Translations under genes and position numbers: made by a program
Source: a virus
IMG/VR virus record: IMGVR_UViG_3300027917_000107
Length of the DNA stretch: 34,550 bases
Reading direction: 5' to 3' (one strand)
In this document: one piece after another, positions 26,204-29,060 of the stretch
Position numbering within the stretch: the first letter of the stretch is position 1
How the letters are laid out: every line of letters begins with the position of its first letter
Notes under the pieces: generated by a model
Database searches by the model: none
Told to the model about the DNA's origin: nothing
What the model saw: only the letters and a program-made list of their open reading frames with translations

Positions 26204-26661
26204 CCACCATAGCCCAAAGGCGCTGTCTTGCCTGCAATGTCCGCTACCACTGGCAGTCGTCGGGCCCTGGTTGTGACGACCCAGACAACAGCGCGGACTA
26301 CTGCGAGGACTGCGCAGCCATCGTACGCAGGGTCTTGGTCTCCATCCCTGTGAGGGTGATCAAGCAGTGGGTGCCGACGGACGACGTGACGGCCTTCGAG
26401 CTGGAGCAACTGGAGAAGGACAACGCAGCGACTGCCTTGGCCGAGGGAAAGCTCCACGTCCGGAGAGTGGTTGCGCCCTTCTTCGATCTCGAAGACCCCA
26501 ACAACATCCAGCACTGCGGTTTCACGAAGAAGGATGGCAAGCTCTACAGATGGAGCTACTGGTCGAAGGACCCTGAAGGGACGGCCAAGGTACAACTGGC
26601 CATAGAACGCAACATGGAAACCGGTGAGACCTGTGTCTGGGTAGACCTGCCCAGGAGATGA
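26200..26661 (+). CDS. hypothetical protein with an N-terminal zinc ribbon (153 aa)
   Basis: ATGA overlap. The N-terminus has CLACN … CEDC. Confidence 0.6.
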   Translation: MTTIAQRRCLACNVRYHWQSSGPGCDDPDNSADYCEDCAAIVRRVLVSIPVRVIKQWVPTDDVTAFELEQLEKDNAATALAEGKLHVRRVVAPFFDLEDPNNIQHCGFTKKDGKLYRWSYWSKDPEGTAKVQLAIERNMETGETCVWVDLPRR

Positions 26662-29060
26662 ACATGGAATGGATCCCCAAGTACCTGCACGTCGTGGGAC
26701 ACCACGCCTCCTGGCTGGACCATCGCGTGCTTCCCGAAGTCCGCGCGATGTTCGCGGCGATGATGAGCCGGGTGCCGCAGGGCGGCATCGCCGCTCGCTA
26801 CGACGAGGTGGTCGAGAAGATCGCCAAGGACCTACGTTTCAACTCGAGGGACTTCGAGGACGAGCTAACAGGAGAGGTTGACCAAGCTGCGCTGTGGAAC
26901 AGCTTGACTGCTCGCGCCGAGGAGCTCCTCTGCAACTACATCGACGGCGCACTCCACCCGATCATCCAGGGCTTCTTCGACACCTTCGTCGGCAAGTACG
27001 GACACTCCAGCATCCTCGAACTGACCGGGCAGCCGGTGGTCTTCATCGAGCACATCTCGTGGTGGCTCGCCTACCTCACCTTCGACAACCCGCTGGTACG
27101 CGGGCAGGAGATGAGCACGCGGGCGGTGTGGAAGCAGGACTGGCCGATGGCGGGGGACGCCAGCGAGCCCCGCAACCACACCATCAACTACCACCCCGAG
27201 CGGGAGTACAACAGTGACCTCGTTTGGATGGACGACATTGCTGAAATGCACAAGCTCGGCCTGGAGATCGCGAAGCACGAGATCGAAGCGTGGAAGGCGG
27301 ATTTCCGTGCGCCGTGTGTTCTCTGCAAGGGAGAGGGTTTTGGACTTGCCGCGCCGTGCGGCGAGATCGACGCGGAAGGAGAACCTGTATCGCCGTCACC
27401 CCAAGCGTGTAGAGAGTGTGGCGGCACCGGCAAGAAGCATCCCGAGATGTGGGAGTGGCAGGACTGCACCTGTCGGAAGTGGAAGCACCGCCCCGGAGTA
27501 CCACCCGCCGAAGGGGAGAAGCCCCCGGTGATGGAGACCTGGGTGCTGCACACCGTTTCGGGCCGTACTCATGCCTTGGTCTTCGCAAATGGCACCGGAC
27601 GCTTTTGGCCGATTCCAACCGAGGGGAGCAAGTGCGAAAACCTGACCGGAGACCCCGCTGATCTCCGCAAGCAGATCGAGGAGCGGATCACTTGTTCCGC
27701 CTGCAACAACACCGGGAAGTACCTAGTCCTCCGCGACCCTCAAGGCTTCCGCCCCGCCTTCGACCGGGCACGCTGGGCGCTCCCCGGCACCATCGAGACC
27801 GGGGTAGCCCACACCGCCGACCTGCGCACGATGGCGCGGGTGATTCAGGTGATGGAGGACTTCGCTACCGCAAGCGGGCAACAGTCGGCGCAGCAGATCG
27901 TCGCTGAGGTGAAGGAAGCCTACCGGCAGGCGCTCCCCGGGATGGCCGGGATGGGGTTGAAGGAGGCGTTCTACGACGTTGCCCAGCAATACCAGCAGTA
28001 CGGCGAGCAACTTCGAGGTGCGCAGATCAAGACCGCCGAGCGGCACCGCCTCCGCGACGAGATCCCGTCGGGCGAGATTCCGGCTATGTCGATGGGCGCA
28101 TCGGTGATTCCCATCGGTGAACACCCGGAGGACGTGGAAGAAGCCCTCGAAGCTGGCGATCCGATGGCCGAGTTGCACGTCGAGAAGATGGCCCGGGGTC
28201 TTGGCGTTGATCCCGAGATGTTGACCGGCGATACCAAGTACGCCACCACCGAAATCGCCCGCCGGATTGCCAACCTCAAGAGGATGGCTCCGGGTCTTGT
28301 GGGTGATGCACCGATGACTCCAGACCGAGTCCTGATGCACCCGGATGAATTCAACGAGTGGATCCAGTACACATCCCAATTGCGTCTCCCCGGCAACCTC
28401 AACATGCTGGATCCCGAAGGGAACCCACTCTACGTCGAGGACTCGCGCGACGTGCATGTCGCGGTGAAGCACTGCCGCAGTGGGTGGGACCTCGATCGGG
28501 CCAACGCCTCACGGAGGACGAGCCGACGCACCTACGTCGACCCCTACTTCAACCACTACGCGCAGGTCCTTACGGGCATTCGCTGCTCACTCGCCTGCTC
28601 CCGAGACTGGCATCGACACCGCACGATGATGCCATGGAGGTTGAGGATCGTGCGTGAGCAGAAGGGATTTCGGCCAGATCACCCTGACGGGGTCAAGCAG
28701 GGGTATGGCCTCCTCACTATCGACCACCACTACACGCCCACCTCGGAGTTCGGCAAAGAGAACTACGACCGCTACTTGCGCCTCTGCACTGAGCTGCACG
28801 ACAAGTACATGGCCGAGGGCAATCAGTGGATGGCGATGCTCTGCCTTCCCTTCGGCACTCGCGTGCTGATGAGTGGCCAGGGCGGACTGCGGCACGCCGT
28901 ATACATGACCGAGCTGAGGGGCTACGTCGCAGGCGGCAACTTCGAGTACAGGGAGCAGGCACGCACCATGCTCGAGAAGATCGAAGAACGCGGCGTTGGC
29001 AGCAGGCCCAAGGCGTCTCGTGACCTGCTGGGGTTCGACATCCCCATGGAGGGAGAATGA
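26658..29060 (+). CDS. large ThyX-fold (flavin-dependent thymidylate synthase-like) protein with inserted CxxCxGxG zinc-finger repeats (800 aa)
   Basis: The C-terminal region (LTGIRCSLACSRDWHRHR … LPFGTRVLMSGQGGLRHAVYMTELR) parallels ThyX (ITGISRSCTHELIRHRH … [25 protein letters not shown]). An N-terminal partial ThyX-like stretch (KYGHSSILE…STRAV) lacks RHR. The middle has the DnaJ-type zinc motifs CVLCKGEGFG, CRECGGTGKK and CSACNNTGKY. ATGA overlap. Confidence 0.5.
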   Translation: MNMEWIPKYLHVVGHHASWLDHRVLPEVRAMFAAMMSRVPQGGIAARYDEVVEKIAKDLRFNSRDFEDELTGEVDQAALWNSLTARAEELLCNYIDGALHPIIQGFFDTFVGKYGHSSILELTGQPVVFIEHISWWLAYLTFDNPLVRGQEMSTRAVWKQDWPMAGDASEPRNHTINYHPEREYNSDLVWMDDIAEMHKLGLEIAKHEIEAWKADFRAPCVLCKGEGFGLAAPCGEIDAEGEPVSPSPQACRECGGTGKKHPEMWEWQDCTCRKWKHRPGVPPAEGEKPPVMETWVLHTVSGRTHALVFANGTGRFWPIPTEGSKCENLTGDPADLRKQIEERITCSACNNTGKYLVLRDPQGFRPAFDRARWALPGTIETGVAHTADLRTMARVIQVMEDFATASGQQSAQQIVAEVKEAYRQALPGMAGMGLKEAFYDVAQQYQQYGEQLRGAQIKTAERHRLRDEIPSGEIPAMSMGASVIPIGEHPEDVEEALEAGDPMAELHVEKMARGLGVDPEMLTGDTKYATTEIARRIANLKRMAPGLVGDAPMTPDRVLMHPDEFNEWIQYTSQLRLPGNLNMLDPEGNPLYVEDSRDVHVAVKHCRSGWDLDRANASRRTSRRTYVDPYFNHYAQVLTGIRCSLACSRDWHRHRTMMPWRLRIVREQKGFRPDHPDGVKQGYGLLTIDHHYTPTSEFGKENYDRYLRLCTELHDKYMAEGNQWMAMLCLPFGTRVLMSGQGGLRHAVYMTELRGYVAGGNFEYREQARTMLEKIEERGVGSRPKASRDLLGFDIPMEGE

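Follow-up and report, generated by a model that had tools for sequence, protein, structure and literature searches.

What is a ThyX-like protein of 800 amino acids (aa) doing in a viral genome? The question is raised by an open reading frame (ORF) of the IMG/VR virus record IMGVR_UViG_3300027917_000107, whose 34,550 nucleotides (nt) are referred to here as the window. A first-pass annotation had pointed out that canonical ThyX is much shorter, which holds among phages, where ThyX measures 216-275 aa. It had proposed for this ORF tandem ThyX half-sites, a DnaJ-type zinc-finger insert and perhaps a new function. Our analysis leads us to regard the protein as probably a ThyX-fold, flavin-dependent thymidylate synthase, a pseudo-heterodimer in a single chain, whose function, judged from its sequence, is most likely the synthesis of dTMP from dUMP for phage replication. 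We see in it an unusual form of ThyX, a known enzyme, and not a new kind of system.

The ORF, placed by the earlier annotation at 26658-29060, is real and lies on the plus strand. Its GC content at third codon positions is 0.80, which is coding-like, and it lies within a run of co-oriented, often overlapping genes. A 798-aa protein identical to the window protein (P0001) is present on a 40,155-bp European Nucleotide Archive (ENA) contig and in an independent Logan assembly, that is, in two independent samples. Since an AGGAG is spaced 6 nt before ATG 26664 but directly abuts ATG 26658, the former (798 aa) appears the likelier start. The stop of the preceding ORF is found at 26659-26661, and this gene and the fused ThyX gene overlap or are coupled. 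Residue numbering throughout is that of the 800-aa version.

The Pfam profile Thy1 (PF02511) matched the full protein with 33.2 bits (gathering score 24.8, E 5.8e-8), with aa 639-777 aligned to profile positions 61-187. When pieces were compared with the same profile, aa 571-800 alone scored 25.5 bits over positions 59-187, while the piece aa 346-440 gave a match at aa 367-421 to positions 133-188 (E 0.042). Since these two pieces cover the same part of the profile, the domain is present twice. Thy1 was also matched by 42 of 45 relatives. In hhalign comparisons with a canonical ThyX alignment of 9 sequences (8 annotated phage ThyX and a Thermotoga maritima ThyX sequence used as bait), the C-half profile was aligned with a probability of 95.9% (E 5.8e-9). 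The N-half ran collinear with the canonical alignment over 126 columns, with GHSS placed on GHET, FDSP...QEFSTRA on RHR...NELSGRY, and DRARWALP on EVARIVLP. A family-profile search of PDB sequences found the ThyX entries 4fzb and 2cfa at E ~1e-3, whereas a PDB search with the single sequence (phmmer) gave no match.

The structure was modelled with AlphaFold2 as a monomer on the 100-sequence family alignment, and the full model reached a mean predicted local distance difference test score (pLDDT) of 82.9 and a predicted template modelling score (pTM) of 0.78. Both halves are predicted to adopt the three-dimensional fold of ThyX, and the best 50 matches of the model in a Foldseek search against the PDB were ThyX-family structures without exception. 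Taken together, profiles and model indicate a true tandem of two ThyX-fold domains, the first of which is broken by a Cys-rich insert. The ThyX-like character that had been assigned to both ends of the protein, the N-terminal one without an RHR, was borne out by profile, alignment register and fold, and the idea of a pseudo-dimeric ThyX is supported. Neither outcome that had been named as refuting it, a lack of ThyX profile matches or a model of unrelated fold, was observed.

How the ThyX motif is distributed between the two halves was read from the columns of a family alignment of 100 relatives. In the C-half, R649, D650, W651, H652, R653, H654 and R655 are conserved in 99-100% of the sequences, and R754 is invariant within Y749-x-x-E-L-R754. 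The C-half counterpart of T. maritima (Tm) R147 is Ala or Met in the aligned relatives. As had been noticed before, the position where the motif RHRx7S calls for Ser is occupied by Arg663. This replacement had been taken as a hint of a new function, a suggestion that does not hold because column 663 is unconstrained in the family (G 24, R 19, Q 19, D 13, S 10). In the N-half the RHR is lacking, and F142-D143-[S/N]144-P145 stands in its place in ~100% of the aligned relatives, as D-N-P here, so that the motif reads FDNPx7S153. Its Ser/Arg end, QEMS153-T-R155, is retained; the first-pass annotation was essentially right about the tandem half-sites and had missed both this end and the 130-aa linker at aa 441-570. 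Invariant in the N-half are G115, H116, S118 and E121, in and next to the motif GH(E/G)(T/S), whose canonical role is to contact FAD (flavin adenine dinucleotide) and folate; further Q150, E151, S153, T154, R155 and A156; and R372, P376 and R390. With respect to the Tm enzyme, Q150 corresponds to N85, E151 to E86, S153 to S88, R155 to R90 and Ala156 to Y91. An intact RHRx7S is therefore found in neither half, the C-half reading R653-H-R655x7R663, and the motif is complete only when the halves are combined.

The meaning of this split is suggested by the known active sites. In the ThyX of Mycobacterium tuberculosis (Mtb), the site is formed by RHR (95-97) and Arg199 from subunit A, Ser71 and Arg190 from subunit B, and Ser105, Arg107 and the lid Tyr108 from subunit C (PMC6514825). 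In PBCV-1 ThyX, Gln75 and Arg182 are contributed by one monomer, and Ser88, Gln89 and Arg90 by another (PMC3498832). Exactly the A set is retained by the C-half of the window protein (Tm R74, Q75, R78, H79, R80 and R174), while the N-half retains the C set (Tm N85, E86, S88 and R90, plus R147) and the B set (Tm H53, T55 and R165). As far as the alignments tell, the halves carry complementary subsets of active-site residues, and the partition is conserved across the relatives.

We propose that duplication and fusion of an ancestral ThyX, followed by sub-functionalisation of the halves, gave a single-chain pseudo-heterodimer. The C-half would act as subunit A through R649, D650, R653-H654-R655 and R754, residues which canonically hold the FAD phosphates and isoalloxazine and touch the dUMP uracil and phosphate. 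As subunit C, the N-half would bind the dUMP base and phosphate with Q150, E151, S153, T154, R155 and R372; as subunit B, it would bind FAD with H116, S118 and R390. In the D2 geometry of the ThyX tetramer, a site is built from a subunit X and its images p(X) and q(X), p and q being two of the three two-fold axes. Were the two C-halves related by the third axis, exactly two complete sites would result, in which a C-half takes the part of A and the N-halves take those of B and C, and the other two would be dead. Because the partition of residues matches the subunit roles in ThyX tetramers, we infer a homodimer mimicking the tetramer, a ThyX-like pseudo-tetramer of two N-halves and two C-halves that would have two sites and two FAD and not four sites. 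The oligomer, the number of active sites, the binding of FAD and zinc and the dTMP product are deduced from the sequence rather than observed.

The enzyme would turn dUMP into dTMP for phage DNA synthesis. Several lines of evidence make this the most economical function. The residues in contact with FAD and dUMP, including Arg754, are under strong selection; genes nearby serve to produce or consume dUMP and dTMP (dCTP deaminase/dUTPase, dNMP kinase); the sampled flanks hold no other thymidylate synthase; and the sister group, annotated as ThyX, apparently provides some bacteria with their only thymidylate synthase.

A number of observations weigh against a pseudo-heterodimeric thymidylate synthase. 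Neither the alignment of the N-half with the C-half (E 0.03) nor that of the N-half with canonical ThyX (E 0.1) was significant in hhalign, the halves being too diverged at the sequence level, and the residue equivalences given for the N-half rest on a weak collinear alignment together with the match in predicted fold. The NCBIfam equivalog TIGR02170 scored 17.3 bits, far under its cut-off of 87.9. The absence of ThyA and single-domain ThyX from the window and from 18 related loci, which speaks for the proposal, refers to ~10 kb on each side of the related genes. In one relative, on a 270-kb phage-like contig, genes for a P-loop kinase, ADDT, a GATase and TET/JBP are clustered 3-8 kb downstream, putatively for thymine hypermodification. 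Finally, S-T-R is followed by Ala in 192 of 198 clade members (Ala156 in the window protein), whereas the sister group of gp020-type and cellular tandem ThyX has Tyr or Phe there in 37 of 37. The canonical lid Tyr screens dUMP C5 and flavin N5 from solvent (PMC6514825), and mutagenesis has shown the Tyr of T. maritima ThyX (Y91) to be critical (PMC11940539).

These last observations bear on a reading in which the fused architecture is the same and the reaction has changed: with Ala in place of Tyr, water might be admitted to the exocyclic-methylene intermediate, yielding 5-hydroxymethyl-dUMP or another C5-substituted nucleotide for phage DNA modification. We consider this unlikely and keep it alive mainly because of the invariant Tyr-to-Ala change, to which the published roles of the Tyr as lid and in catalysis lend weight. 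The hypermodification-like cluster near one relative and the C5 DNA methylase gene within the window were also counted in its favour, as was the fact that ThyA-type enzymes are the only dUMP and dCMP hydroxymethylases known so far (PMC8989533). Somewhat more doubtful is the further step of supposing that the Ala156 clade has ceased to be a thymidylate synthase and acts as a hydroxymethylase or alkyl-transferase of pyrimidines, the first to be flavin-dependent and of ThyX fold, with 5-hydroxymethyl-dUMP or a related C5-modified nucleotide as the product for phage DNA modification. All the remaining residues that contact substrate and cofactor are conserved, however, and most contexts have no hypermodification genes. 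The TET/JBP contigs are read as making 5-hydroxymethyluracil from thymine in DNA, which needs dTMP and not hydroxymethyl-dUMP (PMC8989533), and the lid could be supplied by another aromatic residue of the fused protein. The earlier proposal of a flavin enzyme with a new function, for example on a modified pyrimidine, is not supported but keeps a small probability. Against it, each canonical dUMP and FAD contact has a counterpart in one of the two halves, R754, which reads uracil O4, among them, and the neighbours belong to ordinary phage nucleotide metabolism; the loss of the lid Tyr is the point that counts for it.

It is improbable that the protein is a ThyX-fold uracil C5-methylase with another substrate, either UMP, as for PolB, or the uracil of a polynucleotide (tRNA or DNA) that would be bound by the zinc knuckles. 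Nucleic-acid binding is common among such knuckles, but the zinc insert is missing in 61% of the family and cannot define the substrate. Moreover, R155, R372, R649, R653 and R754, arginines that bind phosphate and uracil in the manner typical of mononucleotide sites, are invariant, the match to PolB is no better than that of genuine ThyX, and antibiotic-biosynthesis genes were not found near the window gene or on its contig.

A catalytically dead relic of ThyX, with a structural or regulatory role in sequestering dUMP or FAD or in binding the host ThyX, would agree with the incomplete motif of each half and with the low TIGR02170 score. We hold it to be very improbable, since what one half has lost the other keeps without variation, in ~100 relatives and in the sister clades, a pattern that marks selection acting on a composite active site. 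In addition, inteins target the GH-SS motif, and the duplicated form is reportedly the sole thymidylate synthase of Chloroflexi (PMC3224940). That there is only one ThyX domain, split by very large insertions and preceded by an unrelated fold, is hardly credible and is contradicted by the doubled Thy1 region and the two predicted ThyX folds: the best Pfam stretch spans only profile positions 61-187, in the C-terminal part, and the halves do not align significantly with each other, but aa 367-421 repeat positions already covered by the C-half, and the Thy1 match of the related protein gp020, described below, falls on the N-half.

Two long inserts set the window protein apart from most of its relatives. 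A Cys-rich insert of ~140 aa with 10 Cys interrupts the N-half; the same site is a 12-aa Cys-free loop in 61 of the 100 relatives and a four-Cys unit of 26-55 aa, CxxCxGxG...CxxCxGTGKK[HY]P, in 37. The first-pass annotation had counted three CxxCxGxG motifs. A Cys-rich insert is indeed present in the N-half, but only two motifs are strict (at C220 and C251), the one at C346 reads CSACNNTG (CxxCxxxG), and a CxC at 270-272 had been missed; other Cys are found at 234, 270, 272 and 326. We infer two zinc sites from this pattern. The pairs C220/C223 and C251/C254 would form the ancestral knuckle, common to about a third of the family. The second probable site encloses a ~70-aa beta-hairpin module that is mostly specific to the window protein, with strands at 294-300 and 303-309 in the model and low confidence at 310-326. 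The likeness to a DnaJ-type zinc finger holds at the level of the motif and not at that of the profile, as Pfam DnaJ_CXXCXGXG (PF00684) scored 12.5 bits against a cut-off of 32.7, while reaching E 6.7e-6 in some relatives. Paired CxxCxGxG motifs are common to both, and in DnaJ they form two interleaved zinc centres. The central domain of DnaJ has four such motifs, against two strict ones plus CxC and CxxCxxxG here, where the Cys pairs appear from their conservation as two consecutive sites, inserted in an enzyme fold and without a J-domain. Two relatives match Anti-TRAP. Because most relatives do without it, the insert cannot be essential to catalysis.

The second insert, a linker of 130 aa between the halves, is helical in the model (pLDDT 41-72) and has no match in Pfam. 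Its length is 142 aa in P0003 and 4 aa in the family median, the long helical form being found only in these two proteins. An RHR at aa 462-464, within this linker, was considered as a motif and rejected as due to chance, the linker being confined to two proteins. Both the Cys-rich insert and the linker appear to be lineage-specific decorations, placed at a loop and an inter-half junction that tolerate insertions across the family. Insertions of 300-600 aa or more were seen at the inter-half junction in P0002 (1156 aa), P0007 (1233 aa), P0008 (1084 aa) and P0134 (1582 aa); that of P0008 gave a sub-threshold match to a fragment of DNA_pol_A, and a part of the linker of the window protein is also present in P0002.

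A third kind of insertion is seen in ~9 relatives (P0018, P0038, P0049, P0055, P0059, P0067, P0070, P0077 and P0119), which carry a Cys-initiated intein of ~350 aa inside the invariant G-H-S-S. The intein starts as ...YGH/C-YDDQTEVL..., the slash marking an insertion point that corresponds to aa 116/117 of the window protein (nt ~27003-27008), and in P0119 it includes a LAGLIDADG_3 domain. No intein is present in the window protein. Inteins tend to settle in conserved catalytic sites such as the G-H-S-S, and their presence there was counted as a sign of selection on the enzyme.

The fused ThyX family is rare. In a word-index search, 126 relatives were found, mostly of 450-600 aa, mostly with PF02511 and nearly all unnamed; the blocks that they have in common with the window protein are aa 8-215, 346-440 and 571-778. 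A hidden Markov model (HMM) search of 1.84 billion cluster representatives (50%-identity clusters) gave 139 matches at E<=1e-30, a number that rose to 297 with E<=1e-10 and to 916 with E<=1e-3. Neither blastn nor tblastn of the ORF gave a match among 50,697 GenBank phage records. A stringent peptide-pattern scan of one genome per species for 185,579 prokaryotic species returned only 3 loci, in metagenome-assembled genomes, so that at this level of similarity the family is essentially absent from cultured cellular genomes. Of the five loci in IMG/VR, one is on a 175-kb contig and another on a 251-kb contig. The annotations of 20 relatives included one functional name, 'thymidylate synthase ThyX', given to a single cluster member, the rest being unnamed or 'hypothetical protein'. 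Possible naturally split versions were also noted: P0169 (L028 2114-2797) holds the first part of the N-half and stops near the site of the zinc insert, and P0170 (L027 82-912) holds the second part of the N-half and the C-half, with GIY-YIG genes nearby. Both lie at contig ends, and truncation, an intron or a gene split by a homing endonuclease may be the cause.

Among the closest known systems is canonical ThyX (PF02511, EC 2.1.1.148; T. maritima TM0449, M. tuberculosis ThyX, PBCV-1 A674R). Its FAD and dUMP contacts H53, T55, E58, R74, Q75, R78-H79-R80, N85, E86, S88, R90, R147, R165 and R174 all have counterparts in the window protein, and only the Tyr is excepted. It is carried by 2,142 phage records, among nucleotide-metabolism genes, like the window gene. 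Canonical ThyX are single domains which form homotetramers with four identical three-subunit sites, whereas the window protein joins two diverged domains, each with a part of the site residues, and would have no more than two sites per dimer. They further differ in that RHRx7S is intact in neither half here and the equivalent of Tyr91 is Ala, and the likeness in sequence is marginal. PolB, a ThyX-fold UMP/dUMP C5-methylase of polyoxin biosynthesis (PDB 4p5a), is a single domain and no closer to the window protein than genuine ThyX is.

The same split architecture is found in a named protein. A relaxed tblastn with a compact family member hit only Ma-LMM01-type Microcystis phages (E 0.04), and the family HMM matched gp020 of Ma-LMM01 end to end (E 5e-16). 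This protein of 491 aa, from a cultured cyanophage and annotated 'thymidylate synthase', is encoded at L026 2872-4347, which is NC_008562.1 15717-17192. Pfam Thy1 matched its N-half with 51 bits. It shows the split of the window protein, its N-half reading YGHGS...FNTMPLGAGQERSTRY and its C-half AARDFNRHRS...; in general, the gp020-type motif is ...GQE[RK]S[ST]R without RHR in the N-half and RD[FL]NRHR without Ser in the C-half. In a motif scan of gp020-type proteins of 460-590 aa, Q/E-x-S-[ST]-R was found in the N-half of 37 of 37 and RHR in the C-half of 35 of 37. One of them, P0270, is encoded on a 642-kb contig among ordinary cellular genes. phrog_36506 matches gp020 in length and was weakly matched by 23 of 45 relatives (best 5.7e-9); the window protein matched it with E 0.0023 over aa 112-169 only and gave no match at the 0.001 threshold. 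Identity between gp020 and the present clade is only ~25%, and S-T-R is followed by Tyr or Phe in gp020-type proteins but by Ala in this clade. CxxC is absent from gp020, as is an RHR between its halves, and the window protein is 300 aa longer.

In the literature on tandem, fused or pseudo-tetrameric ThyX, we found only a one-sentence remark on a duplicated ThyX in Chloroflexi, 'not characterized' (Valas and Bourne 2009, PMC3224940), some of these bacteria reportedly having only the duplicated ThyX. It may be of the same lineage as the proteins described here. In the literature on Ma-LMM01-type phages the gene is named ThyX, and its domain architecture is not mentioned. The duplicated architecture is thus already known, and a description of the split motif or of its mechanistic meaning was not found in the literature. 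The Chlamydia ThyX of ~529 aa is presumably another two-domain ThyX. By its sequence, the window protein can be placed as a member of a divergent, phage-borne, unnamed clade of duplicated ThyX.

Table 1. Features of the fused ThyX gene and other genes discussed. Positions are those of the window, except in the last line, which refers to the locus of a relative.
Feature	Position	Strand	Description or basis
Whole ORF	26658..29060	+	800 aa from first ATG, stop codon included
AGGAG, ribosome-binding-like	26653..26657	+	upstream of ATG 26664 and ATG 26658
N-half, ThyX-fold, first part (aa 1-216)	26658..27305	+	strands beta1-beta4, helices, long helix 192-216
G115-H116-S117-S118	27000..27011	+	corresponds to canonical GH(E/G)(T/S) motif (Tm H53/T55, Mtb Ser71)
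FDNPLVRGQEMSTRA (aa 142-156), putative N-half counterpart of ThyX motif	27081..27125	+	column frequencies and hhalign register
Cys-rich insert in N-half (aa 217-355)	27306..27722	+	between long helix and FRPAFDRARW helix
Probable zinc site 1, C220xxC223xGxG + C251xxC254xGTG	27315..27431	+	alignment of insert region
Probable zinc site 2, C270xC272 + C346xxC349	27465..27716	+	alignment of insert region; Cys pattern also in P0004
N-half, ThyX-fold, second part (aa 356-440)	27723..27977	+	D369-x-A-R372-W-A-L-P376 (Tm R147); R390 (Tm R165, Mtb R190)
Helical linker insert between halves (aa 441-570)	27978..28367	+	130 aa; helical in model
C-half, ThyX-fold domain (aa 571-780)	28368..28997	+	Pfam Thy1 and hhalign
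R649-D-W-H-R653-H654-R655, RHR end of ThyX motif	28602..28622	+	Tm R74, Q75, R78, H79, R80
Arg663 (RHR+8), Ser position of canonical motif	28644..28646	+	sequence and family column
Arg754, counterpart of uracil-binding Arg	28917..28919	+	Tm R174, Mtb R199, PBCV-1 R182; hhalign register
C5 cytosine DNA methylase	21463-22395	+	Pfam/PHROG scan; in DNA-related gene run 21463-25547
phrog_6247 'DNA topoisomerase'-like gene	22403-23461	+	Pfam/PHROG scan
phrog_424 PAPS-reductase-like gene	24549-25547	+	Pfam/PHROG scan
L014/L015 hypermodification-like cluster	14274-19363		Ploopntkinase3 (faint), LMWPc+ADDT, GATase, Tet_JBP oxygenase

The genomic context of the family is phage-type. In the window and on its contig, genes were found for a C5 DNA methylase, a GIY-YIG protein, a PAPS-reductase-like PHROG, a dNMP kinase (weak Pfam match), a NUDIX protein and GyrB; on the ENA contig the GIY-YIG ORF is located upstream, and DNMK (weak), NUDIX and GyrB downstream. 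The closest full-length relative, P0003, is encoded on a 251-kb contig near dCTP deaminase/dUTPase, topoisomerase IV and a sigma factor, and other relatives are found near DNA polymerase A, NT5C, DFP and methyltransferases. The L014/L015 cluster resembles TET/JBP-type thymidine-hypermodification loci (PMC8989533).

Other parts of the window gave some observations of their own. The ORF at 17006-19702 (+), of 898 aa, matches the shoulder domain of the Major Vault Protein (PF11978, E 1.2e-20) and, below threshold, a Vault_3 repeat. The genes around it form a phage-like array, and it had no PHROG match. At 12705-13769 (+), a 354-aa protein has a NADAR domain (PF08719, E 2.3e-18); NADAR is linked to ADP-ribose processing, and the gene may be a counter-defence gene. 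The GC content is 70-73% at 29500-32400 versus ~62% elsewhere, and 75% in the first 1 kb of the window. Within the former region, an 892-aa minus-strand ORF (29666-32344) overlaps the plus-strand ORFs 29522-30754 and 30893-31855 and looks like a high-GC shadow ORF; none of the three had a match in Pfam or PHROG.

ThyX is an antibacterial drug target. If the protein is the pseudo-heterodimeric thymidylate synthase that we propose, it would be a natural single-chain ThyX with its roles split between the halves, so that one role could be mutated alone, which is not cleanly possible in a homotetramer, and half the number of sites would be shown to be sufficient. The positions of the zinc knuckles, of the linker and of the inteins mark sites of the ThyX fold that tolerate large insertions and may be of use in protein engineering. 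The clade-wide loss of the Tyr would mean either that the flavin-dependent chemistry has been re-tuned or that another residue stands in. For the family as a whole, the split motif allows a mostly unnamed group of proteins from phage and jumbo-phage metagenomes (~140 clusters at E<=1e-30) to be annotated.

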